DNA of 64,000 nucleotides from Dictyostelium discoideum (Eukaryota), in the NCBI GenBank assembly GCA_000004695.1, contig CM000155.2, positions 2,240,001 to 2,304,000 of the forward strand, given 5' to 3'. A model generated the notes under the pieces. That model ran no database searches. It had not been told where the DNA came from and saw nothing but the letters and a program-made list of their open reading frames with translations. Numbering within the stretch: the first letter of the stretch is position 1; every line of letters starts with the position of its first letter. This document shows, in pieces, positions 15,927 to 64,000 of this stretch. A program made the position numbers and the translations under genes.

Positions 15927-16020
<94 letters not shown>

Positions 16021-18387
16021 TTATTTATTAAGAATAATTTACATGAATTATGGTCATTATTAAACTTTTTATTACCAGATGTTTTTTCATCATCAGATGA
16101 TTTTGATAAATGGTTTGATTTAGCAAATAATACAGAGAATCAACAAGAGGTTATTGATAAATTACATAAAGTTTTAAGACCATTTTTATTAAGAAGAATT
16201 AAAACTGAAGTAGAGAAATCATTACCACCAAAGAAAGAGATTAAATTATTTGTTGGTTTATCAACGATGCAAAAAGAATGGTATAAAAGATTACTTTCAA
16301 AGGATTTGGATGCAGTTGTTGTTGGAGCAAAAGGTAATACAGGTCGTGTTAGATTATTGAATATTTGTATGCAATTAAGAAAGGCATGTAATCATCCTTA
16401 CCTTTTCGATGGTGCAGAGGAAGAACCATACACAACCGGTGAACATTTAATTGACAATAGTGGAAAGATGGCATTATTGGATAAACTATTGAAAAAGTTG
16501 AAAGAAAGAGGATCAAGAGTTTTAATCTTTTCACAAATGTCGCGTATGTTGGATATTTTGGAGGATTATATGTTGTATCGTGGTTATAAGTATGCAAGAA
16601 TCGATGGTTCTACCGAATCGATCGTTAGAGAGAATTCAATTGAAAATTACAATAAACCAGGTTCAGACTTATTTGCATTCCTTTTAACCACCAGAGCCGG
16701 TGGTCTTGGTATCACTTTGAATACAGCCGATATCGTTATCTTGTTTGATAGTGATTGGAACCCACAAATGGATCTTCAAGCACAAGATCGTGCCCATCGT
16801 ATTGGTCAAACTAAACCAGTGACAGTCTACCGTTTTGTGACAGAGAATTCAATGGAGGAGAAAATGGTAGAGAAAGCAGAAATGAAACTTCAATTGGATG
16901 CATTGGTAATTCAACAAGGTCGTCTCGTTGAGGCAAATAAAAATGCAAAACCTGAAGAACTCTTGGCAATGCTTAGATTTGGTGCTGATGATATCTTTAA
17001 GAGTAAATCATCAACCATCACCGACGAGGATATCGATTCCATTCTCAAGAAAGGTGAAGAGAAAACTGAACAACTCAATAGCAAAGTTAAGGATTTAGCC
17101 TCCAATCCATTGAAATTCCAATCCGATGGTAATCTATACATGTTTGATGGCGTAAACTATAAGAATTCTCATTCCAGTGCAGGCTATTGGGCAGAGACAT
17201 TGAAACGTGAGAGAAAAACAGTCGCAGGTACAGTGGCAGCCGATGAAGAAATCGCTCCTGCAAAACCAGTGGTAAAGAGAGAAAGACGTTTCAATAAACC
17301 AAAGCAGACACCAATCTATGATTTCCAATTCTATCCACCAAGATTAACTCAACTCTATGAGAAAGAGAATGAAGCCTACAATAAAAAGGTGGAATGGTAC
17401 GACCAAAAAGATAAAGGTGAACTTCCAGAGGAAGAGGAGGAACCAGACTTTGGTGATCTATCAAAGGAGGAACAAGATCTCAAAGAAAGATTAATTAAAA
17501 CCGGTGGTTTTGGTGATTGGTCAAAAACTGATTTCCGTACTTTTATTCGTGGTTGTGAATTGTATGGTCGTAAGGCTTATCAAAGTATCGCTGAAGAGGT
17601 TCAAACTAAAACTGAAAAAGAGGTTCAACAATATTCTCAAGCATTTTGGAAAAAACACTCTGAGGTTGCCGATCATGAGAAATTGGTTGCACGTATTGAA
17701 AAGGGTGAAGAGAGAATCATGAAATATAAAGAAACTCAAGACTCTTTAAATTATAAGATCAACAAATATAAAAATCCTTGGATTGAATTAAAGATTCAAT
17801 ATGGTTTGAAAAAGAATAAAAACTATAACGACGAGGAGGATATATTTTTGGTTTGTATGTGCCATCGTTTGGGTTATGGTGCCTTTGAAGAATTGAAAGA
17901 GGAAATTAGAAAATCACCACAATTCCGTTTCGATTGGTTCATTCAAACTCGTACTTGTCAAGAATTGAAAGCTCGTGTCGATCAATTACTAAAATATATA
18001 ATCAAAGAACATCAAGAGGAAGTGGAAGCTGCAAAAGAAGCAGAGAAAAGAAAGAAAGAAAAAGAGAAATTAAAATTGGCAGCCTCTGGTGTCACCGCCT
18101 CTAAAGCAAAGACTGAATCTCCAAATAAAACACTTGGTAAGAGAAAAGATGCTCCACCATCAAAACCTCCTGCTAAACCATCTAAAGCTTCTGCTAAATC
18201 AAAACCTGCTCCAAAATCAAAGACTTCCACAACTACAAAACCTACTACTACAAATGGTAGAGGTAAAAAGAAACCTGTTGAAGAAGAAGAACCAATGGAA
18301 GAGGAAGAGGAAGAAGAAGAAGAGGTTGAAGAGGAAGAGGAAGAAGAAGAAGTTAAAGTTCCACTCAAAAAGAGACAAGTTAAATAA
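14360..18387 (+). CDS. isw: ISWI-type SNF2-family chromatin-remodelling ATPase. It has 4 exons: 14360..15167, 15255..15535, 15639..15860 and 16033..18387, giving 1221 aa. Intron 3 contains a roughly 120 bp (ATT)n microsatellite.
   Basis: Exon 1 carries the ISWI N-terminal AutoN-like motif ([15 protein letters not shown]). The exon 1/2 junction gives [21 protein letters not shown]... (human SPSYVKGGTLRDYQ). The helicase motifs are [25 protein letters not shown]|[16 protein letters not shown] (split across intron 3) and the C-terminal helicase lobe [14 protein letters not shown]. The C-terminus has HAND-SANT-SLIDE ([14 protein letters not shown]...). All four junctions were phase-checked. The 1221 aa size agrees with my memory of Dictyostelium Isw. 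Confidence 0.9.
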
Positions 18388-18614: not shown

Positions 18615-18686
18615 GTTTCGATAGCTCAGTGGAAGAGCAAGCGACTGCAAATCGTTAGGTCGCCAGTTCAATCCTGGTTCGGAACT
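18615..18686 (+). tRNA. tRNA-Cys (anticodon GCA)
   Basis: GTTTCGATAGCTCAGTGGAAGAGCAAGCGACTGCAAATCGTTAGGTCGCCAGTTCAATCCTGGTTCGGAAC folds as a cloverleaf. It has a 7 bp acceptor stem, D arm GCTC/GAGC, anticodon stem AGCGA/TCGTT with loop CTGCAAA, and T arm GCCAG-TTCAATC-CTGGT. A T-rich Pol III terminator follows. Confidence 0.9.
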
Positions 18687-46131: not shown

Positions 46132-46204
46132 GGTTTTATAGTGTAATTGGTTAGCACCCAGGACTTTGAATCCTGTAATCTGAGTTCGAGTCTCAGTAGA
46201 ACCA
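46132..46204 (+). tRNA. tRNA-Gln (anticodon UUG)
   Basis: GGTTTTATAGTGTAATTGGTTAGCACCCAGGACTTTGAATCCTGTAATCTGAGTTCGAGTCTCAGTAGAACCA forms a cloverleaf. Acceptor GGTTTTA pairs with TAGAACC. The anticodon stem CAGGA/TCCTG has loop CTTTGAA, and the T arm is CTGAG-TTCGAGT-CTCAG. A T6 terminator follows. It closely resembles the eukaryotic tRNA-Gln(UUG) consensus. Confidence 0.88.
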
Positions 46205-46338: not shown

Positions 46339-48074
46339 TTAAAAATTTGAAAAATTTAAATTTTTATTATTATTAAAATCATCTATTATTAAAGGTTTAT
46401 AACCATTAAATGACACACCAAAATTTTTTAAAAATTTATATTGAATGTCGGATAACTTAAATTGGTTTTCAATAACTGTTTGCTGATTTGATTTGTTTCT
46501 TTTTATATTTATTAAATATTCTAATAGAGAGTCATTTTGTAATTTTACAGATGATTTTAAAATTCTAATTAAAAGGTCACAAAATTCATTTTTAGATAAT
46601 AAAATAAAATCAATTAGTTTGATAGTGAAATAGTGATTATTGGATTGAATGAAAATTTCAAATATATATTCAATTTCCTTTTCACAGAAAAAACCAATTG
46701 AAATTAAATATAAAATAACCCTAGGGTTTGAAGCCAATAAATCATGTAATAATCTTTTCTTAAATGAGTTGCTTTTGTTTAAAACCAATTGTTTCTTTAA
46801 ATACTGATCAATAAAAAAGACCCAATTATTATTTATACAAAGAAATAAAATATTTAAAAATTCATTCTTTTCAAATTGAATTTGATTTTCAGAGTTTGAA
46901 ATTTCGGTTGACCACTTTTTTAAAATAAAAGGTAAAAGTTTTTTATTTGATTGATCATTACTTTCAAATAAATGATGATTTAAAGTTTTTGTTTTATATT
47001 CGAAGGTTTTTTTTGAAATGTAATCATTAAAGTATGGAAGACTATTCAATTTATTAAAAAATTTACATCTTGATACTCTGCAAAGAGGAGGTGATTGTAA
47101 TAATCTTTCAAACATATTTTCAAATAGATTTTTATTATCTTGAATCTTTAATGTTTTAACAAAATTCAAATTCAAGTTATTGAATAGTAATTGTTGATCA
47201 TATTTAATTGAGGATTCTAATAAAGCAAAATAATTATATACACTATTAATAATTTGAGATTGATTCTCGATTGAGGTTAATTGAATTTTAAAGTGATCAA
47301 ACCAATAATTTTCAAATAAATAATTTAAAATTTCTTGATGATTTTCATTTGCTACAGATATTAATAAAGTTAGCGGTGGTTTATAATATTTAGTATATAG
47401 TTTTACTAAAGGTAAATCATTTTGAATGGAAAATGTACGATTTGAATCAAAAATCTTTTGAAGATTTATACCATTTTTTAAAAAGAATTGAAACTTTTCA
47501 ACTGTTAAATATTCAGATGATGATAAACCTCTCCATATTGTCGTTGGTGCTTTCTTTGAAAGTTCAATTGCATTTGATAAATCATTATTTATACATGTTG
47601 GTAAAAATTTAATATTATTTATTAATGAATCGAATGCACGAGTTTTTAAAATGTATTGAGCAATACTTGGATCTTTAACTATAATTGAACTGGTATAGGA
47701 ATTCTTTAATTTCTTTATAAAATCATCAGGTAAAGAAATCATAACTTTTAAAAGTACCAACATTGATGATTTCATTAATGAACATGGTCTAATTTTAAAT
47801 TGATCAATGGTTTTAATTGAAACTTTTGTATCATAAACTTTTATTTTCGAATCAAAAGGATCCATATTTGAATTTAATTTTTTCTTAAAAATTTCTAAAA
47901 CCATTTTAAACATAAATTCATCACTGTATTCTATAATCTTTTCTAAAAATGTTAAATTTGAAGAATTTGATTCAAATAAACCAATTTTATTCAATACCAT
48001 AGGTCCAAACTCTTTTGATAATTTCTTTTCAACAATTTTTTCTAAAACTTTAAAAATTGATTCTTCAAAATTTA

Positions 48075-48129
<55 letters not shown>

Positions 48130-48645
48130 GTTATTAGCTTGAGGAGTTATTAAATCTAATAAAATTTTAAATCTTCTTTTAGAATCACAACTTGATGAGA
48201 ATGAAAATTTTTCTAAATTTTTACAATCATAAATTGTTGGATTAAATATATCTACAATAAATTTCAATGTTTCATAATTTTCTATTGAAACTAATAATGA
48301 ATCTAAAGAATTTGAAACTTTTTTAAATTGTTGTTCAATTTCAAATTGAAAAATCTTATAAATCTTGTAAAATATTTGAAAATCTAATTCCTTCCATTTA
48401 AATAATTTATATAAACAATAATAATTAAAATTTATAAAATGTTTATAATTATCTTTTTGAGAATTTTCAAATAAATAATTTAATTTCTCTATTAATAAAA
48501 CTTCATTCTTGGTTTTAATTATTAATGAAAGTGGAAATTCATAATAATTATATGTTAGATAATATTGATTACTAATTTTTAAAAATTGAAAAATTTTTTT
48601 CCTTAAAAATGAATTTCTATAAACTTTAAAAAATAAATCTCCCAT
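46339..48645 (-). CDS. Member 1 of a tandem lineage-specific paralog family, 768 aa (MGDLFFKVYRNSFLRKKIFQFLKISNQYYLTYNYYEFPLSLIIKTKNEVLLIEKLNYLFEN...). It is the most divergent copy and contains an N18 tract.
   Basis: It shares the roughly 100 aa N-terminal domain (LFxxVFxNxYLxxKIxxYI ... YNYY(D/E)FPLELxLKTKNxxLLIEKL ... FxxxCLxxLxxWxEL) and dispersed C-terminal similarity with the ORFs at 49490, 52229, 55609 and 58560. No known domain was recognised. Confidence 0.7.
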
Positions 48646-48715
48646 TTTAAATTTGTACTGTGCTTATTTAAAAAAAAAAAAAAAAAAGAAAAAATCAAAA
48701 AAAAAAAAAAAAAAA

Positions 48716-48748
<33 letters not shown>

Positions 48749-49489
48749 TAAAGATTTAATTATTTTATAAATAGAAAATTTAAAAAAAATTATTGTCCTT
48801 TTATTTTAAATTAAATATTAAATAAATAAAAATAAACATATACATATATATTAATTTTTGGTGATTATAAATTCAATCTTTAGCTTTATTACAAAAAAAA
48901 GTGGGTGAAAATAAGAAATTGTTTTTTTTTTATTTTTATTTTTTTTTCATTTTTTTTTTTATTTTTTTTTTAAAAAAGATAAAACATTGTTATTAACTTT
49001 TTTTTTATATCTTAAAATCATTAAGAGTTTCTAATTAAAAAAAAAAAAAAAAATTAAAAATAGAAATAAATAATAATAACTATTTTTTGAAATTATCAAT
49101 CTATTTTTATCTTTTTTTTTTTCAATTATCTAATTTGGGATATCTAAATTAAATTCCAAGATTAAAATAGTGTGTTATTGTTGGTTGATTCAATACCCCA
49201 AAAAAAATAAAAAAAAAAATAATAAAAAATCAGGTTCACTTAGAGACACTAGTTCTCATTAGTCGGGTCATTTTTTTTTTTTATTTCTTAAATTAATTGT
49301 GTTCAATTTTTTTTTTTTTTTTTTTTTTTTTAATAACCTTCTATATTTTGTTAATAAACTTTGAAATGTTCAACTATTTTTTTTTAAAAGTTTAAACTCT
49401 TTTTAATACAAATAAATAATAAAGGGTTATTTTCAAAATAAATTAAAATTAATAATTATTTTTTTTTTTTTTTTTTTTGAAGATAAATT

Positions 49490-51814
49490 TTATTTAAAAG
49501 TTAAAGAATAATTAAAAATAGTATTTAAATTTTTAATGAAAAAATTATAATGTTGAGAAGAAGTTTTTTTTGATAAATAATTAATTTTTGAATTATTAAT
49601 TGATAAATGACCAATTAAAAATAATTTAATTAAAATTTTATGTAAAATAAAACTATTACCTAGTTTTCTTTCTAATGAAATTGAACAAAATGATAAATCA
49701 TTTAAAAAACCACCATTATAAACAGAAATGAACAAAAGTTCAACATTTAAAGAAAAACCAAAAGATTTAATTTGAGAATTTGTAAAGATAATCGAATTTA
49801 AAATTGCAAAACGAATAATATTTAATGCAAAGGTTTTTGATCTCCATTTCGAAAGTCCTTTTAAAATATTTTCATTTGAAATTAATTGAGCAATTACAAA
49901 TTTAGAATTTTTTTTATTTATTTTACTAATTGAACTATAGATTTGACCTAAAATTTCGAAAACCATATTAGATACGATATCAGTATACACCTTTCTCAAT
50001 TGAGAATTGTAAAGCCACTTTCTTGCAGTTCCTGGGTTACTTTTTAACCATGACACAAACTCTGGATTAAATTTAAAATTTAGTATACTAATATCATAGA
50101 TTTTATTATCATCTTCTTGATTAAAAAAAAAAGAAGACCTTTCATCAAGTTCTACATAATGTTGTAAAATTATTGGTGAAATGTAATTAAAAAGGTCAAT
50201 TAAATTACATTGAATTGAATGAATTAACAATAAAATAAGATTTGTTTTAAAAAGTGATGGAGATGATCCATCACCAAAGCATATATTACCATGGTTGATA
50301 ATATTCTCTAAAAAACATTTATGTAATTCTTTATTACTACTACTACTGCCAGATTCAAATGCTTTTTTAATTTGATTATAATTATACTTTTTTGGAAACC
50401 TTTTAAAATAAGATTTTAATGCATTCACATCTTGATTCTTGATAATAACATTAAGAATTTCTAATGGATTATAAAAAAATGGTATTTCTTTTTCAAAAAG
50501 ATTTGATTCTATCATTTCTTTATTAACTGATTGTAAAAAGTAGTAATCAATATATTTGTGTTGTGGGAGTGGTAAAGTCTCAAACTTGACCTGTTCTCTT
50601 TTTCCAATTTTTCTAAGTTGGTAATCACAAACCCAAGAGATTTTAACATTATATAAGTTTTTTAATTCTTCAAAATAATTATCATTTAACCATATTGCTA
50701 CATCTGAATCATATATTAATCTTTGTTTGTGAATTGGTTCTTTATCTCTTTGAAAATATTTCCAGTAAAAATTTTTACATAAAACTTTTACAATATCTAG
50801 GTTAAAACTTTCAAAAATAAATCCAATTGGTATATCGAATGATTCCAATATCGATCTCTCTATACTAATTCCTAATAATTTCACAATTTCATCATTATTT
50901 TCTAATAGTGCTAAAGGTAACTTTGTTGGTGGTAGTGGTGTATATTTATATTTTTCTAATAATAATTTAAGCATAAATTGATCTTGGTATTTACTAATTG
51001 CACTAAATAAATTATTTATTGCTGAATAGAATGGATCATACAATATTTGAAATTTATTTGGGAAATATTCTAAAATTAGTGAACCAAATAGTTTTGATTG
51101 ATTTGTTTTAATTATATACTCTAAATAATGTACCAATTCTCTGAATGATACATCAATTTTTAATTCACTAAGGATGTATCTAAAAATTTCTTTTTTCTTT
51201 TTAATTTCATCATCATCATCATCATCATCACCATTTACTGTTCTTTTAAATTTATCAAACATTTTAAATATTGGTTCTATATCTATGGTTTCAATTTCGA
51301 GATACTTATTATTTATCAAGTATTTAAGTTTCTTTAAATCACAAATACCAATTATAATTGAATTATAATCAATTCTAACCAATCGAGCTATATATGGACT
51401 ATTATAATTTAATTTATTATGATATTTAATTTCCTTATTGGTTTTTTTAATTTGTTTATTAATTTCTGTTATTTCATTTTTAAATGTTTCAAAAACAATT
51501 TCAAATAATTCAAATGGTAATTCCCTCCATTTATATAATCTTTTTAAACAATATTCACTAAAATTTAAAAAATGTTTACTTTCTATTATTGATTTATTAT
51601 TATTATTATTATTATTATTTTTAAAATATTTATTATAATTATTTATTTTTTCAATTAATAATGGTTGATTTTTTGTTTTTAATATTAATTCAAGTGGGAA
51701 ATCATAATAGTTATATCCAATATATGTTTGTTCTTTATTGTGTTGTGTAATATATGAATAGATTTTATTGATTAAATATTTATTTTTGAATACTTTATAA
51801 AATAAAAAATCCAT
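49490..51814 (-). CDS. Member 2 of the paralog family, about 774 aa. It most likely starts at MDFLFYKVFKNKYL (ATG 51814). In-frame ATGs at 51821 and 51847 lie within an inverted-repeat arm.
   Basis: The ORF-track ORF 49490..51847 begins MIIFSPNPNMKMDFLF..., and the other paralogs begin MDLLF/MGDLFF. The N-terminal domain is conserved (YNYYDFPLELILKTKNQPLLIEKINNY). It lacks the Pro/Thr linker (YKYTPLPPTKLPLALLENNDEIVKLLGISIERS). Confidence 0.7.
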   Translation of the reverse strand: MDFLFYKVFKNKYLINKIYSYITQHNKEQTYIGYNYYDFPLELILKTKNQPLLIEKINNYNKYFKNNNNNNNNKSIIESKHFLNFSEYCLKRLYKWRELPFELFEIVFETFKNEITEINKQIKKTNKEIKYHNKLNYNSPYIARLVRIDYNSIIIGICDLKKLKYLINNKYLEIETIDIEPIFKMFDKFKRTVNGDDDDDDDEIKKKKEIFRYILSELKIDVSFRELVHYLEYIIKTNQSKLFGSLILEYFPNKFQILYDPFYSAINNLFSAISKYQDQFMLKLLLEKYKYTPLPPTKLPLALLENNDEIVKLLGISIERSILESFDIPIGFIFESFNLDIVKVLCKNFYWKYFQRDKEPIHKQRLIYDSDVAIWLNDNYFEELKNLYNVKISWVCDYQLRKIGKREQVKFETLPLPQHKYIDYYFLQSVNKEMIESNLFEKEIPFFYNPLEILNVIIKNQDVNALKSYFKRFPKKYNYNQIKKAFESGSSSSNKELHKCFLENIINHGNICFGDGSSPSLFKTNLILLLIHSIQCNLIDLFNYISPIILQHYVELDERSSFFFNQEDDNKIYDISILNFKFNPEFVSWLKSNPGTARKWLYNSQLRKVYTDIVSNMVFEILGQIYSSISKINKKNSKFVIAQLISNENILKGLSKWRSKTFALNIIRFAILNSIIFTNSQIKSFGFSLNVELLFISVYNGGFLNDLSFCSISLERKLGNSFILHKILIKLFLIGHLSINNSKINYLSKKTSSQHYNFFIKNLNTIFNYSLTFK

Positions 51815-52216
51815 TTTCATGTTTGGGTTGGGGGAGAAAATGATCATTTTTATTTTTTTTTTTTTTTTTTTATTTTTTTTTTTTTTTTATTAATTTATTA
51901 ATAAAAATTTTTTTTTTTTAACTTATTTTTTATTTTTTATTTTTTTATTTTTTTTTTTTTTTTTGTGATTTAATTTTATTTTTAGTATGAATTTAGTGGA
52001 GAGAACTCAAAATACACACGATATAATATATAAAAATTAATGTAATCATTCTGTTTATTTTTTTTGTTTTTTTTTTTTTATTTTTAGAATTCAATTATTT
52101 ATCATTCTTTTTTTTATGTAATTGTTTTTTTTTATTTTGAAAAGAGAGGGAATATATTTTATATCAATGATAAAAAAAAAAAAAAAAAAGATCATTTTCT
52201 CCCCCAACCCAAACAT
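51815..52216. repeat. MITE-like structure: a perfect 27 bp inverted repeat (atgtttgggttgggggagaaaatgatc / gatcattttctcccccaacccaaacat) flanking a roughly 340 bp AT-rich spacer
   Basis: Arm A at about 51822..51848 overlaps the 5' end of the member-2 ORF. Arm B at about 52189..52215 lies just 3' of member 3's stop (52229). The arms are exact reverse complements of each other. Confidence 0.55.
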
Positions 52217-52228
52217 TTTTTTTTTTAT

Positions 52229-52631
52229 TTAAAATTTTAATTTATTAAAATTTTTATTAAAAATAGTAATATTGTTATAACTAGCATTATGTATCATTGA
52301 AAAAGAAAATAATGCATTGATTTCTGGAAATTTATTTGTTGATGATATTGTTCTTAATAAACAATTATCTACATTTTTAAATGACATATATCCATTAAAA
52401 AACATTTTAATTAAAATTTTATGAAATACAAATCCTTTACCATTATTTTTATCCAAAAATGGTCTACAACATAATATTTCATTAATACTATTTTCATAAA
52501 ATGATTTTACCAAATTTTCATCATCGAAACCAAATGATTTGAATTGATTATCTGAATCTAAAACAATACCATTAATAACAGCAAAACGAATGATATTTAA
52601 AGGAATATTTTTCAAATCCTTTTTATTTTCA

Positions 52632-52669
<38 letters not shown>

Positions 52670-52673
52670 TTTA

Positions 52674-52768
<95 letters not shown>

Positions 52769-54702
52769 TTTATGATTATTATTATTAATATTTTCATACA
52801 TAATTTGATTTGATGTTAATTCTCTAATGATAAACTTTGAATCTGATTTTAAAGTTTTATTAATAATTTTATAATCAACTTTTTCATTTAAAATTTGAAA
52901 GACAGTGTGTGATAATGCATCAAAATAAAATGATTTTAAATGTGAATTGAAAAACCATTTTCTTGAGATATTATTATTTTTAGCACTTTTTAAACATTTA
53001 ATAAATTGGTGATTATATATAAAATCTTTTAAAGTAATCTTTTCATTATTCTTTATTGCTAATGAAATAAAATTAAAAAGTTCAAAAGAACCATAATCAA
53101 CACATGAAGCCAAAAATGAAATAATTGAATTCATATTATGATTTTTTGGAAAATTACAATTAAATATATTTTCTATAAAACAATTAAATAATTGTTTATT
53201 TCCACTATAAAATGCACTATTAACTTGATCGAAATTGTAATAATTTGGAAAAATATTAAAATAAGCAATCAATACTTCAACATTTTCTTCCTTTATTATA
53301 ATATCAACTAATGATGTTAAAAATGAATATTTATTATGAAGTTGTGCTAAAATTGAATATTCATTATAATTATTATTATTATTATTATTATGCTGTTGTA
53401 CTAAAAATTGTTCAGACTCTATCATTTCTTTATTGATAAAATCAAAATAACAATTTGCAATATATTGAAAAGTTTCAAATTTAACCTGTTCCCTTTTATT
53501 ATTGATTCTTAAATGTAAATCACATAGACATGAGATTTTAATTTCGTTTTTCTTTTTTTTTAATAATAAAAAATAATTATCACTTAAAAACAATGCAATT
53601 TTAGGGTCATATATTATTTGAATAGTTGAATTTCTATAAAATCTATCTGTTGTTTCATTGAATAAACTTGATTTTAATGCTTCACAAAGTACCTTTACAA
53701 TTTCTAAATCAAAATTGTTTAAAATAAATTCAAGTGGAAAATTCATTGCTTCTAAAGTTGATTTACTTATTCTAATACCTAACAATGTAAAAATTTCTGA
53801 TTCAGTTGTTGGTGTTAGTGTTGGTGTTGCTGTTGGTGGTGCAAGTGTTGTTGTTGTTGTTGTTTTTGTTGATGATGATGGTGGTGCAGGTGTTGTTGGT
53901 GCAAGTGTTGTTAGTGTTGGTGTTGGTGGTGGGGGTGGTGGTGGTGTTGGTGTTGTTGGTGGCGCAAGTGTTGTTAGTGTTAGTGTTGGTGTTGGTGTTG
54001 GTGTTGGTGTTGGTGTTGGTGTTGGTGTTGGTGGTGTTGGTGGTGTTGGTGGTGGTGTATATTTATATTTTTCTAATAATAATTTAAATATATATTGGTC
54101 TTTGTATTTAGAAATTATTTGAAATACATTGGTTAATTGATTATGTATAATTGGTAATTCTTTTGGGAATAAATCTATAATTTGTTTTCCAAAAATTTTC
54201 GATTGATCTTTAATCATAATTTCACATAAATATGTTGTTAATTGAGTAAATGATAAATCAATTTTAGATTCGTTTATTAAATATTGAAATATTTCTTTTA
54301 ATTTTATTTCTTCATCATGATGATCATGATTCACTTGGATTCTATAAATCATTTTTCTTTTTCTTTTTAATTTTCTTGAATGTATTAAACTAAAAACTGA
54401 ATTGATATTGATTGACTCAGTTTCGAGTAATTGATTATTTATTATATATTTGAGTTTATCTAAATCTCCATTAATGATTAGATAACTATGGTATAGTATT
54501 TTTTCTTTTCCATATTTATTTATTTTAATTTTTCCAATTATTTTTTCAATTTCTTTTTTAAATGTTTGAAAAATAAGTTCAAATAATTCTAATGATAATT
54601 CACTCCATTTATATAATAGTTTTAAACATTGTTCATTAAATGTTAAAAAATGTTTACTATTTAATATTGATATTTCTGAATATTTATTATTTTTATTATT
54701 AC

Positions 54703-54760
<58 letters not shown>

Positions 54761-54955
54761 TATAAAATATTTAATATAATTATTTAATTTTTCAATTAAT
54801 AATGGTTGATTCTTTGTTTTTAAAACAAGTTCTAATGGGAAATCATAATAGCTGTATCTGATTAATCTTTGTTCTTTATTATACTCTGAAATATATGAAT
54901 AGATTTTTTTCTTTAAATAAATATTTTTAAAAACCTGACTGAATAATAAATCCAT
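52229..54955 (-). CDS. Member 3 of the paralog family, 908 aa. It has the longest Pro/Thr-rich hypervariable linker (YTPPPTPPTPPTPTPTPTPTPTPTPTLTLTTLAPPTTPTPPPPPPPTPTLTTLAPTTPAPPSSSTKTTTTTTLAPPTATPTLTPTTESEIF) and a long Asn/Lys tract.
   Basis: It is over 80% identical to members 4 and 5 outside the linker and homopolymer regions. The linker is encoded by (ACACCA)n-type repeats, seen on the plus strand as (ggtgtt)n at 53811..54060. Confidence 0.7.
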
Positions 54956-55094
54956 TATATATATATAAAATAATATGTTGCTAGTTAAAAAAAAAAAAAA
55001 AAGAAAAAGAAAAATGAAAAATGAAAAAAAAAGTTTTTATAAATATATTTTTTTTTTTTTTTTTGATAAATTCTCAAAAAAAAAAAAAAACAAA

Positions 55095-55103
55095 ATCCCA
55101 CAA
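55095..55103 (+). promoter_or_regulatory. DUSE-like box (TCCCACAA), about 76-83 bp upstream of the Class I RNA at 55179
   Basis: The sequence caaaatcccacaaccaaaaa is present. The same box recurs at the same distance upstream of the second Class I RNA copy (58089..58096). Confidence 0.4.
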
Positions 55104-55178
55104 CCAAAAATAATAAAATATGTATCACGATATATATTAATAATTATAAAAATAATTAAATGTGCAAAAACACAAATA

Positions 55179-55239
55179 AGTTGACCTTACAGCAATCTTA
55201 ACAATTTTATCACATTATAAAAAAAAACCTCAGTCAACT
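55179..55239 (+). ncRNA. Class I RNA (Dictyostelid-specific small ncRNA), about 61 nt
   Basis: AAGTTGACCTTACAGCAATCTTAACAATTTTATCACATTATAAAAAAAAACCTCAGTCAACTG contains the exact 11 nt Class I motif CCTTACAGCAA, immediately 3' of a 5' stem strand (AGTTGAC). That strand pairs with the 3' end (GTCAACT). This is the published architecture of Class I RNAs. A DUSE-like TCCCACAA box lies upstream. Confidence 0.6.
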
Positions 55240-55608
55240 GTATAAAGTGATAAATTTTTTTAAGTTCCTAACTTCCGAATATTAAGAGAGGTCCGAGGTT
55301 CGAAACTCCGTATAGTAACCAATAAAAGTGACCCAAATGGGGCTCAGCTTAGTTGTAGGCCCACTAAAGCTAAAAACTACAAAAAACAATTTGAATCACC
55401 CAAAAACCAAAAACCAATCAAAAAAAAAAAAAAAAAGATTTAAAAAAAGAATGGAAAAAAAGTTATACATAACTTTTTTTTATTTAAAATTTTAATTTAT
55501 TAAAATTTTCATTAAAAATAGAAATATTATTATAACTAGAATTACGTATCATTGAAAAAGAAAATAAGGCATTGATTTCTGGAAATTTATTTGTTGATGA
55601 TAATGTTC

Positions 55609-57951
55609 TTAATGAACGATTTCCTTTATCTTTAAATGACATATATCCATTAAAAACATTTTAATTAAAATTTTATGAAATACAAATCCTTTACCATTAT
55701 TTTTATCCAATAATTGTTTACTACATAATATTTCATCAATACTATTTTCATATAACGATTTTACTAAATCTTCATCATCGAAACCAAATGATTTGAATTG
55801 GTTATCTGAATCTAAAACAATACCATTAATAACAGCAAAACGAATGATATTTAAAGGAATATTTTTCAAATCCTTTATATTTTCATTATTATTATTAATA
55901 TTATTATCATTATTATTACAATACATAATTTGGTTTGATATTAATTCTCCAATGATAAACTTTGAATCTGATTTTAAAGCTTTACGAATAATTCCATAAT
56001 CAACTTTTTTATTTAAAATTTGAAAGACTGTATGTGATAATGCATCAGAATAAATTGATTTTAAATGTGAATTGATAAACCATTTTCTTGAGATATTATT
56101 ATTATTTTTTGCACTTTTTAAACATTTAATAAATCGATAATTATTAATAAAATCATTTAAAGTAATCTTTTCATTATTCTTAATTGTTAATGAAATAAAA
56201 TTAAAAAGTTTAAAAGAACCATAATCGATACATGAAGCCAAAAATGAAATAATTGAAATTATATTATAATTGTATGGAAAATTACCATTAAATATATTTT
56301 CTATAAAACAATTAAATAATTGTTTATTTCCACTATAAAATGCACTATTAACTTGATCGAAATTGTAATAATTTGGAAAAATACTAAAATGAGCAATCAA
56401 TACTTCAACATTTTCTTCCTTTATTATAATATCAACTAATGATGTTAAAAATGGATATTTATTAAAATTAATTTGCTGTTGCGCTAATAATGAATTATTA
56501 TAATAATTATTAATATTATTATTATTTTGTCGTGCTAAAAATTGTTCAGACTCTATCATTTCTTTATTGATAGTATCAAAATAACAATTTAAAATATATT
56601 GAGAAGTTTCAAATTTAACCTGTTCCCTTTTACCAATGATTCTTAATTGTAAATCACATAGCCATGAGATTTTAATTTCATTTTTCTTTTTTTTTAATAA
56701 TAAAAAATAATTATCACTTAAAAACAATGCAATTTTAGGGTCATATATTATATGATTAGTTGGGCATGTATTGAATTTATCTGTTGTTTCATTGAATAAT
56801 CTTGATTTTAATGCTTCACAAAGTACCTTTACAATTTCTAAATCAAAATTGTTTAAAATAAATTCAAGTGGAAAATTCATTGCTTCTAAAGTTGATTTAC
56901 TTATTCTAATACCTAACAATGTAAAAATTTCTGATTCGGTTGTTGTTGATGTTGCTTTTGTTGCTGTTGTTGGTGGTACAAGTGTTGGTGTTGGTGTTTG
57001 TGTTGGTGTTGGTGTTGGTGTTGGTGGTGTTGGTGGTGTATATTTATATTTATCTAATAATAATTTAAATATATATTGATCTTTAAATTTAGAAATTATA
57101 TCAAATACATTGGTTAATTGCTTATGTATGATTGGTAATTCTTTTGGAAATAATTCTATAATTTGTTTTCCAAATATTTTCGATTGATCTGTAATCATAA
57201 TTTCACATAGATATGTTGTTAATTGAGTAAATGATAAATAAATTTTATATTCATTTATTAAATATTGAAATATTTCTTGTAATTTTATTTCTTCATCATG
57301 ATTCACTTGGATTGTAATTTCAGAACGAATCATTTTTCTTTTTCTTTTTAATTTTCTTGAATGTATTAAACTAAAAACTGAATTGATATTGATTGACTCA
57401 GTTTCGAGTAATTGATTATTTATTATATATTTGAGTTTATCTAAATCTCCATTACTGATTAAATTAATATGGTGTTGTATTTTTTCTTTTCCATCTTTAT
57501 TTATTTTTTTAATTTTTCCAATTATTTCTTCAATTTCTTTTTTAAATGTTTGAAAAATAAGTTCAAATAATTCTAATGATAATTCACCCCATTTATATAA
57601 TAGTTTTAAACATTGTTCATTAAATGTTAAAAAATGTTTACTATTTAATATTGATATTTCTGAATACTGATTATTATCGTTATTATTATTATTTTTATTA
57701 TTACTATTATTATTATTTTTTTTTTTATTACTATTATTTTTATTATTATTATTATTTTTAAAATATTTATTAAAATTATTTAATTTTTCAATTAATAATG
57801 GTTGATTCTTTGTTTTTAAAACGAGTTCTAATGGGAAATCATAATAGTTATATCTGATTAATCTTTGTTCTTTATTATACTCTGAAATATATGAATAGAT
57901 TTTTTTCTTTAAATAAATATTTTTAAAAACCTGACTGAATAATAAATCCAT
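55609..57951 (-). CDS. Member 4 of the paralog family, 780 aa as read. It has an apparent 1 bp deletion in a poly-A run near the 3' end, which truncates and alters the last roughly 45 residues relative to members 3 and 5. It has a short PT linker (YTPPTPPTPTPTPTQTPTPTLVPPTTATKATSTTTESEIF).
   Basis: The DNA downstream of the stop (55475..55608) still matches the C-terminal coding sequence of members 3 and 5 (…ccattaaaaacattttaattaaaatt versus …ccattaaaaaacaatttaattaaaatt). This indicates a frameshift, which is either a pseudogenising mutation or a homopolymer sequencing error. Confidence 0.6.
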   Translation of the reverse strand: MDLLFSQVFKNIYLKKKIYSYISEYNKEQRLIRYNYYDFPLELVLKTKNQPLLIEKLNNFNKYFKNNNNNKNNSNKKKNNNNSNNKNNNNNDNNQYSEISILNSKHFLTFNEQCLKLLYKWGELSLELFELIFQTFKKEIEEIIGKIKKINKDGKEKIQHHINLISNGDLDKLKYIINNQLLETESININSVFSLIHSRKLKRKRKMIRSEITIQVNHDEEIKLQEIFQYLINEYKIYLSFTQLTTYLCEIMITDQSKIFGKQIIELFPKELPIIHKQLTNVFDIISKFKDQYIFKLLLDKYKYTPPTPPTPTPTPTQTPTPTLVPPTTATKATSTTTESEIFTLLGIRISKSTLEAMNFPLEFILNNFDLEIVKVLCEALKSRLFNETTDKFNTCPTNHIIYDPKIALFLSDNYFLLLKKKKNEIKISWLCDLQLRIIGKREQVKFETSQYILNCYFDTINKEMIESEQFLARQNNNNINNYYNNSLLAQQQINFNKYPFLTSLVDIIIKEENVEVLIAHFSIFPNYYNFDQVNSAFYSGNKQLFNCFIENIFNGNFPYNYNIISIISFLASCIDYGSFKLFNFISLTIKNNEKITLNDFINNYRFIKCLKSAKNNNNISRKWFINSHLKSIYSDALSHTVFQILNKKVDYGIIRKALKSDSKFIIGELISNQIMYCNNNDNNINNNNENIKDLKNIPLNIIRFAVINGIVLDSDNQFKSFGFDDEDLVKSLYENSIDEILCSKQLLDKNNGKGFVFHKILIKMFLMDICHLKIKEIVH

Positions 57952-58088
57952 TTAATATATTAATAGGTTGTTAATCAAAATAAAAGAAAAAAAAAAGAAA
58001 AAGAAAAAAAAAGTTTTTTTAATTTTTTTTTTTTTTTTTTGATAAATTCTCAAAAAAAAAAAAAAAATAAAAAAAAGAGGAAAGAAAA

Positions 58089-58096
58089 TCCCACAA
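58089..58096 (+). promoter_or_regulatory. DUSE-like box (TCCCACAA) upstream of the Class I RNA at 58171
   Basis: The sequence gaaaatcccacaaccaaaaa is present at the same spacing, about 75-82 bp, as in the first copy. Confidence 0.4.
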
Positions 58097-58170
58097 CCAA
58101 AAATTATAAATATTTATCAGGATATATATTAATTATTTTAAAAATAATTAAATGTGCAAAAACACAAATA

Positions 58171-58229
58171 AGTTGACCTTACAGCAATCTTAACAAAATT
58201 TTTTCTGAATAAAAAAACCTAAGTCAACT
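58171..58229 (+). ncRNA. Class I RNA, second copy, about 59 nt
   Basis: AGTTGACCTTACAGCAATCTTAACAAAATTTTTTCTGAATAAAAAAACCTAAGTCAACT has the same motif and terminal stem, with the internal loop region diverged. A 3'-end fragment (aaaacctaagtcaactgtatc) is duplicated again at about 58321..58341. Confidence 0.6.
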
Positions 58230-58559
58230 GTATCTTTTATAAAATTTTTTCTAAAACCTAAGTCTTTTTTTTTTGAATTGGATAACGCAATTATTATTTG
58301 CTTCTCCTTGAGGTTATTCTAAAACCTAAGTCAACTGTATCTTTATAAAATTTTTTAAGGTTCGAACTCCCAAGCTAAAGATGTCCTAGGTTCGAAACTC
58401 GGTCACGAATCAAATTAATGTGACCCAAAATGGGGCTCACCTTGTTGTAGTCTTACTAAAGCTAAAAACAATCAAACCACCCAAAAACAGTAAAAAACTA
58501 AAAACCAACCAACATTCAAATTTAAAAAAGAATGGAAAAAAGTTATATATAAATATATT

Positions 58560-58982
58560 TTAAAATTTTAATTTATTAAAATCTTCATTAAAAATAGTAA
58601 TATTGTTATAATTAGCATTACGTATCATTGAAAAAGAAATTAATGCATTGATTTCTGGAAATTTATTTGTTGATGATAATGTTCTTAATAAACGATTTCC
58701 TTTAACTTTAAATGACATATATCCATTAAAAAACAATTTAATTAAAATTCTATGAAATACAAATCCTCTACCATTATTTTTATCCAATAATGGTCTACTA
58801 CATAATATTTCATTGATACTATTTTCATAAAATGATTTTACCAAATTTTCATCATCGAAACCAAATGATTTGAATTGAATATCTGAATCTAAAACAATAC
58901 CATTAATAACAGCAAAACGAATGATATTTAAAGGAATATTTTTCAAATCCATTTTATTTTCATTATTATTTTCATTATTGTA

Positions 58983-59072
<90 letters not shown>

Positions 59073-61019
59073 ATATATAATTTGGTTTGATGTTAATTCT
59101 CTAATGATAAACTTTGAATCTGATTTTAAAGCTTTATGAGTAATTCTATAATCGACTTTTTTGTTTAAAATTTGAAAGACAGTATGTGATAATGCATCAA
59201 AATAAAATGATTTTAAATGTGAATTGATAAACCATTTTCTTGAGATATTATTATTACTTTTAACACTTTTTAAACATTCAATAAATTGATAATTACTAAT
59301 AAAATATTCTATACTAATATTTTCATTATTCTTTATTGTTAATGAAATAAAATTAAAAAGTTTGAAAGAACCATAATCGATACATGAAGCCAAAAATGAA
59401 ATAATTGAAAATATATTATAATTGTATGGAAAATTACCATTAAATATATTTTCTATAAAACAATTAAATAATTGTTTATTTCCACTATAAAATGCATTAT
59501 TAACTTGATTGAAATTGTAATAATTTGGAAAAATATTAAAATAAGCAATCAATGCTCCAACATCTTCTTCCATTACTATAATATCAACAAATGATGTTAA
59601 AAATGAATAATTATTATTATAATAATTATTATGCTGTTGTGCTAAAAATTGTTCAGACTCTATCATTTCTTTATTGATAAAATCAAAATAACAATTTGCA
59701 ATATATTGAGAAGTTTCAAATTTAACCTGTTCCCTTTTACCAACGATTCTTAATCGTAAATCACATAGCCATGAGATTTTAATTTCGTTTTTCTTTTTTT
59801 TTAATAATAAAAAATAATTATCACTTAAAAACAATGCAATTTTAGGGTCATATATTATTTGAATAGTTGAATTTGTATTAAATTTATCTGTTGTTTCATT
59901 GAGTAATCTTGATTTTAATGCTTCGCAAAGTACCTTTACAATTTCTAAATCAAAATTGTTTAAAATAAATTCAAGTGGGAAATTCATTGCTTCTAAAGTT
60001 GATTTACTTATTCTAATACCTAACAATGTAAAAATTTCTGATTCGGTTGTTGTTGGTGTTGGTGTTGGTGTTGGTGTTGGTTTTTTTGTTGGTGTTTGTG
60101 GTGGTACAAGTGTTGGTGTTGGTGTTGGTGGTGGTGTTGGTGGTGTTGGTGGTGGTGTATATTTATATTTATCTAATAATAATTTAAATATAAATTGGTC
60201 TTTGTATTTAGAAATTATTTGAAATACATTGGTTAATTGATTATGTATAATTGGTAATTCTTTTGGAAATAATTCTATAATTTGTTTTCCAAATATTTTC
60301 GATTGATCTTTAATCATAATTTCACATAAATATGTTGTTAATTGAGTGAATGATAAATCAATTTTTGATTCTTTTATTAAATATTGAAATATTTCTTGTA
60401 ATTTTATTTCTTCATCATGATGATCATGATTCACTTGGATTGTAATTTCAGAACGAATCATTTTTCTTTTTCTTTTTAATTTTCTTGAATGTATTAAACT
60501 AAAAACTGAATTGAAGTTGATTGATTCAGTTTCGAGTAATTGATTATCTATTATATATTTGAGTTTATCTAAATCTCCATTACTGATTAAATTAATATGG
60601 TGTTGTATTTTTTCTTTTCTATATTTATTTATTTTTTTAATTTTTCCAATTAATTTCTCAATTTCTTTTTTAAATGTTTGAAAAATAAGTTCAAATAATT
60701 CTAATGGTAATTCACTCCATTTATATAATAGTTTTAAACATTGTTCATTAAATGTTAAAAAATGTTTACTATTTAATATTGATATTTCTGAATACTGATT
60801 ATTATTATTATTAATATTATTATTTTTAAAATATTTATTATAATTATTTAATTTTTCAATTAATAATGGTTGATTCTTTGTTTTTAAAACGAGTTCTAAT
60901 GGGAAATCATAATAGTTATATCTGATAGATCTCTGTTCTTTATTATACTCTGAAATATATGAATAGATTTTTTTCTTTAAATAAATATTTTTAAAAACCT
61001 GACTGAATAATAAATCCAT
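58560..61019 (-). CDS. Member 5 of the paralog family, 819 aa. Its PT linker reads YTPPPTPPTPPPTPTPTLVPPQTPTKKPTPTPTPTPTTTESEIF, and it has an N30 tract.
   Basis: Outside the linker it is near-identical to members 3 and 4 in sequence and domain order. The full C-terminus is intact (…LRTLSSTNKFPEINALISFSMIRNANYNNITIFNEDFNKLKF*). Confidence 0.7.
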
Positions 61020-61095
61020 ATTATATATAAAAAAAAAAAAGAAAAAGAAGTTTTTTTTTTTTTTACAAATTGTTGTAGGGAATTTTCAATAAAAT

Positions 61096-61153
61096 TTCAC
61101 TACAGTAGCGTAGTGAATTTTATTATTTAATTTCACTACAGTAGCGTAGTGAA
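61096..61153. promoter_or_regulatory. Two tandem copies, 36 bp apart, of a 22 nt perfect hairpin palindrome ttcactac-agtagc-gtagtgaa. They lie about 75-130 bp upstream of the member-5 start codon.
   Basis: The rc of ttcactac is gtagtgaa, giving an 8 bp stem and a 6 nt loop. The copies are at 61096..61117 and 61132..61153. The element is not present upstream of the other paralogs. Confidence 0.3.
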
Positions 61154-61580
61154 AAAAAAAAATCACTGACCCTAAATTTTTTTTTTTTTCAAAAAACAAA
61201 TAAAGTTTATTAAATTATTATCTTTTATTTGAATATTAGCTCTATTTAAGGTTTTTTAATTTTTTTTTTTTAATTTAATTTTTTTTTTTTTTAATTTAAT
61301 TTTTTTTTTTTTTTTTGCGCCAAAATTTTTTTTTTTTTTCCCCAACAAAACTTTTTTTTTTTTTTTTTTTTTTTTTATTTTCATTTTCCCAAAATGAAAC
61401 AAGATAAATTATTTAAAATTTATTGAAGATAATAATTTTGAAAATACTAAACATAAAAATTATAAATTTTTACATGATGAGTAAATATTTTTCCTTACCA
61501 TAACACAATCATTTTTTAAATTCTGACCAATAAAAAACAGAAACAGAAAAGAAAAATTATTTAGAATTGAAAAAAAAGTC

Positions 61581-62424
61581 ATGAATTGTGGCGGAGATAG
61601 AAATATATCAAAAGAAGTGTGTTTAGAAGTAATTAATGATTATAGAATGGTATCACTCTGGGAAGAAATGCATAAAGGTCATATAGGAAGAGATGCAACC
61701 TATGGGAACTACAAGACTAAATATTATAATATGGGATTGTATTCTTTTGTATCTGATGCAGTAGATACGTGTGACATTTGCCAACGAAATAGAATAAAAG
61801 GTTTGGTATCAATCATTTTTTATATGATGTTTTGTAACTTTTATATTAAAACTCTGTGAAAGTATGGCACTGCGATAATGGACGTGAATTTAAAAACAAA
61901 GTCCAAAAAGAATTCCTAAAACTTTTTCCAGGCTCCAAGTCAGCACATGGAGCTCCTCGTACACCAACAACTCAAGGTATGGTAGAAAGATTGAATCGAA
62001 CTATCAAGGAGAGGATCTCAAAATTAAAACAACAAGAGTATGATATTGTGAACAATATAAATTATCGATATGTTTATTAATTAATCATTTATAAATAAAT
62101 TTTAGTTTTCTTGATGGTACTTCTAGGTCTCTTTCTGAACTATTAAAACAAGCTTTGTATGATTACAATAATACAAAAACAAGAACAATTAAAATGACAC
62201 CATCTCAAGCTGTTGGTATTGTTCCTTTGTTTATTAATGTTCAATCAGAACAAGACTCTCAATCAATTGGTGTTTCAGATGTTTCAAAAGAAGAAAGAAC
62301 AGCTATTATTCTTGAAAATCTCACAAGTTACCAAAATCAATGGAATTCAAAACCACCAAAGGGATTGAAAGTTGGTGATACTGTACTCTTTCTAGAAATT
62401 AAAAAAAATAATGTAAGTAATTAA
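61581..62424 (+). mobile_element. Degenerate internally deleted remnant of a Ty3/gypsy-type LTR retrotransposon integrase (skipper/DGLT-A-like)
   Basis: Three consecutive ORF fragments lie in pol order. The first has an HHCC zinc finger (HKGHIGRDATY...CDICQRNR). The second has the distal catalytic core (WHCDNGREFKN...GAPRTPTTQGMVERLNRTIKE). The third has the C-terminal region (YNNTKTRTIKMTPSQAVG). They are separated by stops and frameshifts. The first two-thirds of the D,D(35)E core is missing. GC content is locally elevated. The remnant abuts an assembly gap. Confidence 0.6.
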
Positions 62425-62702
62425 AACATAAAGATTAATAATATATGAAACAGTAATAATTATCAAATTTTATATTTAATTCTAATAGATAATATTGATT
62501 TTAGGTATAATAATAAGGGGGTTCTGGAAGACACTATACTGCTCTATAAACTTGAGTTTTTGGAAGACGGACTAATCGCCTGAATACAAGGTCATACTCT
62601 GTGTTGGNGAAGGGAACAAACCATGGATGTTTATAACATGCGAACTTGATATTGTTAGAGCATTGTCCTCATACATGAAGATACNGACTCTTTTACTTCT
62701 GG

Positions 62703-62802
62703 NNNNNNNNNNNNNNNNNNNNNNNNNNNNNNNNNNNNNNNNNNNNNNNNNNNNNNNNNNNNNNNNNNNNNNNNNNNNNNNNNNNNNNNNNNNNNNNNNN
62801 NN
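62703..62802. other. Assembly gap (100 N)
   Basis: There is a run of n characters. Isolated n also occur at 35993, 62588 and 62685. Confidence 0.95.
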
Positions 62803-63151
62803 TATTAAAAGTTTCAAAATCTAATTCCTTCCAAACTAGTAATGATTTTAAACATTCTTTATTAAAATCTAAATAATATTTGGTAATGATACTACTACTG
62901 CTAATGACTTCATCATCATTTGATTCACCTTTGATTATATATTTATTATAAAATTTAATTTTCTCTAATAGTAATATTTGATTTCTACTCTTTATTACCA
63001 TCTCTAATGGGAATTCGTAAAAATTATATGTTAAATATAATAAACTCTCATTATATTGTCTAATAAATTTAAATATAATATTATTTAAATAATTATTTTT
63101 AAAAACACTAAAAAATAATGTATCCATTGAAAAATGTAAAAAAAAATGCAA
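62803..63151 (-). CDS. N-terminal fragment of a sixth paralog-family member (MHFFLHFSMDTLFFSVFKNNYLNNIIFKFIRQYNESLLYLTYNFYEFPLEMVIKSRNQILLLEKIKFYNKYI...), truncated by the assembly gap
   Basis: The family N-terminal domain is recognisable. The ORF runs into the N block. Confidence 0.4.
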
Positions 63152-63390
63152 AAAATAAAATAATGATGTGTTTTTTCTCCCAAAAATAATAATAATAAAA
63201 AAAAAAAAATTTAAAAATCTTGCAAATATCCAATTAAAAAAAAAAAAAAATTTTTTTTTTATTTTAAAATCTATACTTTTTTAGATAAATAAAGAGTACT
63301 TATAATAATAATACTCTTTATTCTTCAAAATAAAAAAAATGAACGATAAATAATTTAATTGTAAAAATAAACTTTTTGGTTGAAAAAAAA

Positions 63391-64000
63391 TTATTTAAAT
63401 AAAAATGGTTTAAAAACTTTTATTCTTTTTAATCTATCAATATAAATAATTCTATCTTGGTAATTTAATTTTGAAATAACAGAAATTAAATATGATTGAT
63501 ATGTTAAATAAATTCGATAATTAATTTCTTGACTATTATTTTTGAAGAAATTTGAATTATTAGCAACTTCTAATAAATAATTAAATGGATAATCATTTTC
63601 TAAAAGTGATGAAAATAGTAATAATAAATGTAATTGTTTTTTATAGATAACCATTGATGTAAACTGTTTATTATTATTATATTTTGAAAGTAATTTTGGA
63701 ATTATTAAATTGAAAATATTAAATTCATCAATTTCATTACATTCACTAAAATATTTGATAACGTTCATGTCTAGCTCTAATAATAAAGTTTGATAAATCT
63801 CATCAGAGTATTGATTAATTAATAATTCCAATGATTGATAATCGTTTAAAGCAAGTAGACATTTTTTAATTGATAATTTTGAAAAGAATATATATCCATC
63901 AAATTTTATTAAAAACTTTAATTGATTAATTCCAATATATTCACAATCTTTTGAAAAATCCCACCTCAACTGTTCATTTGAAAAAAGTTGGATATTTTGA
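63391..64000 (-). CDS. C-terminal part of a further family-like gene. The ORF runs off the window end.
   Basis: The 192 aa ORF is open to the window edge. Its composition and length (NYQDRIIYIDRLKRIKVFKPF) resemble the C-terminal regions of the paralog family. The similarity is weak. Confidence 0.3.
   Translation of the reverse strand, partial: QNIQLFSNEQLRWDFSKDCEYIGINQLKFLIKFDGYIFFSKLSIKKCLLALNDYQSLELLINQYSDEIYQTLLLELDMNVIKYFSECNEIDEFNIFNLIIPKLLSKYNNNKQFTSMVIYKKQLHLLLLFSSLLENDYPFNYLLEVANNSNFFKNNSQEINYRIYLTYQSYLISVISKLNYQDRIIYIDRLKRIKVFKPFLFK

Follow-up and report, generated by a model that had tools for sequence, protein, structure and literature searches.

The right-hand end of a 64,000-nucleotide (nt) stretch of Dictyostelium discoideum AX4 chromosome 6, referred to here as the window, carries a head-to-tail array of related genes, all on the minus strand, in a region with a GC content of 15-25%. 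Seven members of the family are present: five complete genes, one gene cut by a scaffold gap (g6) and one gene cut by the edge of the window (g7). No copies were identified by tblastn in the first 46 kb. A first-pass annotation, made from the sequence letters, had proposed at least six head-to-tail paralogs, including five complete minus-strand genes; the five open reading frames (ORFs) lie exactly where it had placed them, and the count of members rises to seven.

The array and its two partial members

The five complete ORFs, numbered g1 to g5 by rising coordinate, can be aligned over their whole length. The oldest and most divergent full-length member is g1 (46339..48645, minus strand; 768 amino acids, aa; identified as an ORF, in the alignment and by tblastn), which is without the proline/threonine (Pro/Thr) linker described below. 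The adjacent g2 (49490..51847, minus) corresponds to DDB_G0292950, with an annotated start at 51814 and a product of 774 aa; the database protein P0004 is contained within the ORF. The three young copies, all on the minus strand, are g3 (52229..54955; 908 aa), g4 (55609..57951; 780 aa), which is DDB_G0292934 and identical to the database protein P0003, and g5 (58560..61019; 819 aa). Exact-sequence look-ups for g1, g3 and g5 returned no match, so that the public gene models for these three, if any, differ from the plain ORFs.

An N-terminal block is common to g1-g5 and g6, with 29 invariant columns among the six copies in the alignment, and is also seen by tblastn. Its motif, LFxxVFxNxYLxxKIxxYI...YNYYDFPLELxLKTKNxxLLIEKL, is located within the first ~125 residues.

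The sixth member, g6 (62803..63151, minus), is represented by its N-terminal 108 aa, with the ATG at 63127, and the remainder is missing from the reference. It is truncated by a scaffold gap of 100 N (62703..62802), immediately before which ambiguous bases are present at 62608 and 62685. As the gene runs into the gap and all 108 residues (108/108) are identical to the start of P0010, which is encoded by another D. discoideum strain and has 863 aa, g6 is truncated by the assembly and not decayed. The seventh member, g7 (63391..64000, minus; matching segment 63391-63969), is the C-terminal end of a gene whose frame stays open past the end of the window. Its 190 aa correspond, at 92% identity, to residues 467-657 of P0013, a protein of 658 aa that begins with the family domain. 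The g7 fragment itself is without the N-terminal domain and did not align to the g1-g5 profile in hhalign, and its assignment to the family is made solely through this near-identical ortholog. Both fragments had originally been described as carrying the N-terminal domain, which is accurate for the fragment at 62803-63151 and incorrect for the one at 63391-63969.

Young copies and their length variation

The pairwise identity among g3, g4 and g5 was 77-84% for protein and 85-93% for DNA. The original estimate had been more than 80% identity. The DNA similarity continues through the intergenic spacers: two spacer-crossing blocks, 53969-55261 versus 56950-58250 and 55224-55918 versus 58321-58995, were 85-88% identical. 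Homology that runs through the spacers indicates that the duplicated unit is a gene together with its spacer, ~3.0-3.3 kb in length and repeated head to tail. The homology that g5 shares with the other repeat units ends 12-18 bp upstream of its ATG.

The length of the Pro/Thr linker was measured between the anchors KYKY and ESEIFTLLG. The linker spans 85 aa in g3 (53804..54058, minus), 34 aa in g4 (56938..57039, minus) and 38 aa in g5 (60045..60158, minus), with Pro and Thr together accounting for 80-90% of the residues. The underlying DNA forms period-6 arrays in Tandem Repeats Finder (for g3, a degenerate array at 53807-54058), and the minus-strand reading, (CCAACA)n, is a rotation of the ACACCA hexamer named in the first-pass annotation. 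At the corresponding site in the older copies, g1 has nothing and g2 has a short seed, TPLPPTKLP; the statement that these copies are without a linker therefore applies to g1, with g2 retaining the seed. Three plus-strand ORFs (53658-54122, 56771-57079 and 59899-60222), which encode Gly/Val-rich products of 100-150 aa, were rejected as genes; they are the antisense of the Pro/Thr repeats and a by-product of the hexamer.

The poly-Asn tracts vary in length at three sites. At one shared site, the (AAT)n tract on the minus strand measures 170 nt in g3 (52623..52792), 34 nt in g4 (55885-55918) and 118 nt in g5 (58954-59071). The sharp differences in linker and poly-Asn length that had been noted are therefore present.

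The C-terminus of g4 is cut short because a T6 run near 55652-55657 is missing 1 nt. Past the frameshift, the old frame remains 80-87% identical to g3 and g5 over another 44-54 codons, to ~55487. The ortholog of g4 in the strain tagged ACTFIR (P0002) is in frame at this site. The deletion could be either a recent mutation or a homopolymer sequencing error in the reference.

Comparison with two other strain assemblies

The same locus was compared in L001 and L002, assemblies of two further D. discoideum strains tagged ACTFIR and ACTFIW, respectively. In both, the young copies are followed by the g2 ortholog; L001 additionally reaches the g1 ortholog, which is 95% identical to g1. The identity in the block after the linker was 94-98% between positional orthologs and 92-93% between paralogs, which resolved the young copies into four types, A-D. 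AX4 contains B (g5), C (g4) and D (g3); ACTFIW contains A, C and D; and ACTFIR contains all four, with D split into two ORFs. As the orthologs are more similar to each other than the paralogs, the duplications are older than the split of the three strains, and copies were lost or broken later. The length of the linker also differs across orthologs (38 versus 76 aa for B, 59 versus 78 aa for A, and 34, 36 and 31 aa for C), so that the young copies overall carry linkers of 31-85 aa that vary both among paralogs and among orthologs.

Taken together, the homology of the whole unit, the presence or absence of copies among strains and the differences in linker length among orthologs point to unequal crossing-over and slippage. 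The first-pass annotation had interpreted the array as a recent expansion through these two processes. The processes themselves are supported; the expansion is not very recent, given a synonymous divergence (dS) of 0.07-0.09 and the presence of types A-D before the strain split.

The neighbouring gene, DDB_G0292930 (43488-45852, plus strand; 767 aa), is hypothetical and has no Pfam domain. It is 86% identical to its ACTFIR counterpart, 56% to that of D. citrinum and 43% to that of D. firmibasis. The ACTFIR locus tag of the counterpart (008849) adjoins the tag of a family member (008850). The divergence could reflect either a fast-evolving gene or so-called D. discoideum strains that are deeply divergent. 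As this unrelated gene is also just 86% identical to its ACTFIR counterpart, the strains may be broadly divergent, and locus-specific hypervariability, which was considered for the array, is not claimed.

The reference gap, a retroelement remnant and unaligned transcripts

Between g5 and g6 lies a decayed long terminal repeat retrotransposon integrase fragment (61581..62424, plus), consisting of frameshifted ORFs with Integrase_H2C2 and rve_3 domains. The ~1.7 kb upstream of g5 (61020-62702) has no counterpart in the L001 or L002 loci. At the position of the AX4 gap, ACTFIW contains two further family genes of 798 aa and 787 aa (L002 3593-8409), and the 787-aa type is also present in ACTFIR.

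AX4-derived transcripts that do not align to the reference and resemble DDB_G0292950 have been reported, with hundreds of reads and validation by polymerase chain reaction (PCR) (PMC5282741). The published primer pair for comp5569_c2 maps to the 798-aa gene at L002 4034-5528, with a span of 1495 bp compared with the 1491-nt published product (PMC5282741), and the comp4660 primers (comp4660_c0 and comp4660_c4) map to the 787-aa gene of L002. None of the primers of the three reported transcripts maps within the window. Since the primers fit two ACTFIW family genes and none in the window, the gap in the AX4 reference probably hides expressed members of the family, which would sit in or around it together with the body of g6. 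Such hidden genes, of which at least two are suggested, would account for the 'orphan' transcripts described in 2017.

Further features were noted outside the genes of the array. A DDE_Tnp_4 (Harbinger-like) transposase gene is located at L002 1118-3308 (plus), just outside the ACTFIW family cluster. A transfer RNA (tRNA) gene, tRNA-Gln(TTG) (46132-46204, plus), marks the array edge 135 bp past the 3' end of g1, and a tRNA-Cys(GCA) gene is present at 18615-18686 (plus). In general, tRNA genes are frequent targets of Dictyostelium retroelements. Three 2-kb blocks of the window (1-2000, 8001-10000 and 16001-18000) have a GC content of 34-37% against a background of 17-25%.

Distribution and annotation of the family

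When 1.84 billion proteins were searched exhaustively with HMMER, the N-terminal profile matched only 25 cluster representatives (expectation value, E, of <=0.001), all of 650-1100 aa and with the domain always N-terminal. A word-indexed profile search returned a single 82-aa fragment, probably because words from the poly-Asn tracts flooded the candidates, and the exhaustive search was used in its place. The source was looked up for 17 of the 25 matches, and all 17 were from Dictyostelia (D. discoideum strains, D. cf. discoideum, D. citrinum, D. dimigraforme, D. firmibasis and D. purpureum), consistent with the lineage specificity proposed at the outset. Two of the D. purpureum matches are on one 63-kb contig. 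Weaker matches were found in Tieghemostelium lacteum (E 3.8e-6) and Polysphondylium violaceum (E 6e-4), and further family matches were from D. discoideum or D. firmibasis. Full-length orthologs have been kept in D. firmibasis, D. citrinum, D. dimigraforme and D. purpureum. DDB_G0292950 was previously described as 'not conserved in other dictyostelids' (PMC5282741); its homologs in at least six other dictyostelid species correct this statement.

Public databases already list the genes themselves as hypothetical proteins. Five annotated genes belong to the family (DDB_G0292934, DDB_G0292936, DDB_G0292950, DDB_G0293040 and DDB_G0293782), the first being g4 and the third g2; all five are labelled 'hypothetical protein', and nothing about family, domain, fold, array structure or variation among strains is recorded for them. 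With the exception of the T. lacteum protein, the looked-up members are likewise named merely 'hypothetical protein' or 'uncharacterized protein'. Literature searches on the family gene identifiers and on Dictyostelium ankyrin or F-box expansions turned up only the passing mention in PMC5282741. Judged from sequence, the genes constitute a new, uncharacterised family that appears to be restricted to dictyostelids and is defined by an undescribed N-terminal domain absent from Pfam.

Protein architecture and predicted fold

The analysis of 28 isolated N-terminal domains against Pfam gave no match at E<=10, and no F-box family was among the results. Profile searches of the PDB were empty or insignificant, with designed ankyrin and helical-repeat proteins appearing only at E 0.1-3. 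Across 30 members, the Ank models were the sole recurring Pfam families, and were found in 4 of the 30. The T. lacteum protein P0029, the only member seen to score above threshold, does so for Ank_2 (32.4 versus 27.3 bits) and carries a UniRef name of ankyrin-repeat protein.

The AlphaFold2 model of the N-terminal domain has a predicted local distance difference test (pLDDT) score of 86.5 and comprises eight helices. The full-length model of g2 (pLDDT 67.9) is nearly all helical, with a low-confidence loop at residues 298-307, the site of the linker in the younger copies. A Kyte-Doolittle scan identified no hydrophobic N-terminus (the mean over the first 20 residues was ~0) and no transmembrane-grade segment, the highest 19-residue windows reaching 1.37-1.63. 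The proteins are thus most likely soluble and intracellular, as predicted from these profiles. Since the scan gave no sign of a signal peptide, the Pro/Thr stretch probably carries no glycosylation and serves as an intracellular spacer within an interdomain loop. For the body of the protein, a degenerate ankyrin-like alpha-solenoid is probable, leaving the N-terminal module as the sole part outside known families; the window genes are not filed as proven members of the ankyrin family.

Selection on the young copies

Across the young copies, for which dS was 0.07-0.09, the ratio of non-synonymous to synonymous substitution (dN/dS) was 0.63-0.77 overall. By region, the N-terminal domain gave 0.30-0.68, the middle block 0.26-0.45 and the part after the linker 0.78-1.22. 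In these codon-biased genes, the nonsense share of random substitutions is 6-7%, from which ~3.5-4.5 premature stops per young copy would be expected since duplication under neutrality; none was seen in g3-g5. The absence of stops against this expectation indicates that the reading frames of the young copies are being kept open.

Interpretation and alternative explanations

The observation made in the first-pass annotation was confirmed and its evolutionary interpretation is supported. We interpret the locus, with a probability of about 0.7, as a birth-and-death tandem array of dictyostelid-specific genes that encode all-alpha intracellular proteins acting as scaffolds or adaptors. A unit of ~3.0-3.3 kb, gene and spacer, was duplicated head to tail; types A-D had formed before the strains split, after which each strain lost or broke a different copy. 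Changes in copy number may have arisen through unequal crossing-over, and changes in the linker and poly-Asn tracts through replication slippage. The short Pro/Thr seed, in the loop between two helical blocks, has grown into the (CCAACA)n-encoded linker of the young copies. The proposed plan of the protein, ~650-1100 aa in length, is an N-terminal module of ~125 aa (an LFxxVFRNKYLxxKIF helix followed by helical hairpins) and then two degenerate ankyrin-like repeat blocks. In the cell, the proteins may act as protein-protein interaction scaffolds or adaptors, in which the constrained N-terminal module could serve as the common contact, the fast-evolving C-terminal repeat block could provide variable binding surfaces, and the Pro/Thr stretch could be a flexible spacer tolerant of any length.

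Several results weigh against this interpretation. The seven window proteins had no Pfam match at E<=1 and reached no Ank model; the first-pass annotation had likewise been unable to place the N-terminal domain in a known family. The alignment in hhalign of the 30-member profile to a consensus designed ankyrin protein was not significant (probability 0.14, E 0.42), and Foldseek returned just generic alpha-solenoids (PPR, HEAT and ARM) with template modelling scores of 0.1-0.2. The full-length model of g2 was built on a 10-sequence alignment and is of moderate confidence. The expression of DDB_G0292950 was below 1 read per kilobase per million mapped reads (RPKM<1) at all stages (PMC5282741). 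This low expression, the dN/dS of ~1 after the linker, the frameshift in g4 and the broken copy D of ACTFIR fit weak or no function of single copies equally well. The scaffold or adaptor role is a best guess made from architecture alone.

The main rival reading is neutral decay, in which the young copies are dispensable duplicates drifting to pseudogenes. The array would then be no more than a by-product of a region rich in transposons and prone to recombination, with no mechanism that calls for explanation. The overall dN/dS of 0.63-0.77, rising to ~1 in the C-terminal half, the frameshift in g4, the two ORFs of copy D in ACTFIR, the RPKM<1 for DDB_G0292950 (PMC5282741), the presence or absence of whole copies among strains, and the retroelement and DDE-transposase sequences beside the arrays would all be consistent with drift. 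However, ~4 premature stops per copy would be expected and g3-g5 contain none, dN/dS is 0.26-0.68 in the N-terminal and middle regions, full-length orthologs persist in four other species, and family transcripts have been PCR-confirmed with hundreds of reads (PMC5282741), and neutral decay of the young copies is considered unlikely. An assembly artefact, in which one gene was expanded in the reference, deserves scarcely any credence. The scaffold gap and the ambiguous bases in the region might suggest it, but the copies show 7-15% DNA divergence and have distinct linker, poly-Asn and spacer sequences, and in two independent strain assemblies this locus contains three or four copies that can be matched one to one as orthologs. 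The copies are accordingly real paralogs, as first proposed.

The remaining alternatives concern the role of the proteins. Variable-length Pro/Thr-rich repeats are typical of O-glycosylated stalks, and a linker of 80-90% Pro and Thr would suit secreted or cell-surface mucin-like proteins similar to the Dictyostelium spore-coat and prespore antigens. This is very improbable, given that the N-terminus is not hydrophobic and is predicted to lie within a folded helical domain (pLDDT 86-93), that no 19-residue window exceeds 1.63, and that the older members are without the full linker. The N-terminal module might also be a cryptic F-box-like (or SOCS/BTB-like) docking domain, in which case the proteins would be variable substrate receptors of cullin ubiquitin ligases, comparable to the nematode and plant F-box families and to Legionella AnkB. 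This was tested and not supported, as neither the sequence (28 N-terminal domains against Pfam, E<=10) nor the fold showed an F-box signature, and we consider it improbable. A broader and rather doubtful variant is that of a class of intracellular variable receptors or adaptors not recognised before. Their N-terminal docking module, specific to dictyostelids, would link a diversifying ankyrin-like surface to a conserved effector, for example a ubiquitin ligase or a signalling hub, and conflict with bacteria, viruses or cheater strains would sustain the copy gain and loss and the linker length variation among strains. If true, turnover would not be neutral, and the array would represent a repertoire of an innate-immunity-like or self/non-self kind.

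The interpretation of a birth-and-death array of scaffold or adaptor genes is therefore retained. Genes labelled 'hypothetical' are now assigned a probable ankyrin-like alpha-solenoid fold. Tandem duplication, copy loss and linker slippage are the pattern expected of fast-evolving families in an AT-rich, repeat-rich genome; although the pattern is ordinary for fast-evolving eukaryotic gene families, the locus merits the definition of a family and a correction of the reference assembly.

Comparison with known systems

The canonical ankyrin-repeat proteins of the Ank_2/Ank_4 clan, such as RFXANK (3v30), the glutaminase ANK domain (5u0k) and Legionella AnkB (5k34), differ from the window genes, which match no Ank model or consensus. 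The repeats of the window family are irregular, and its 125-aa N-terminal signature and Pro/Thr linker are without counterpart in the canonical proteins.

Although the window family has no F-box signature by sequence or fold, and a link to Skp1 or cullins would be hypothetical, it resembles the expanded F-box receptor families of C. elegans and plants in its organisation. Those families likewise form lineage-specific tandem arrays with variation in copy number and sequence among wild isolates, as documented within species for the F-box genes of C. elegans (PMC8120010). In both cases a short N-terminal module under constraint is joined to a variable repeat body, and expression is low.

The Pro/Thr linkers of glycoside hydrolases and of the Dictyostelium prespore and spore-coat proteins differ from that of the window family, whose host protein shows no signal peptide in the Kyte-Doolittle scan and whose linker is probably unglycosylated and intracellular. 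The linkers are alike in composition, in a 6-nt coding period and in a length polymorphism generated by slippage at a domain boundary.

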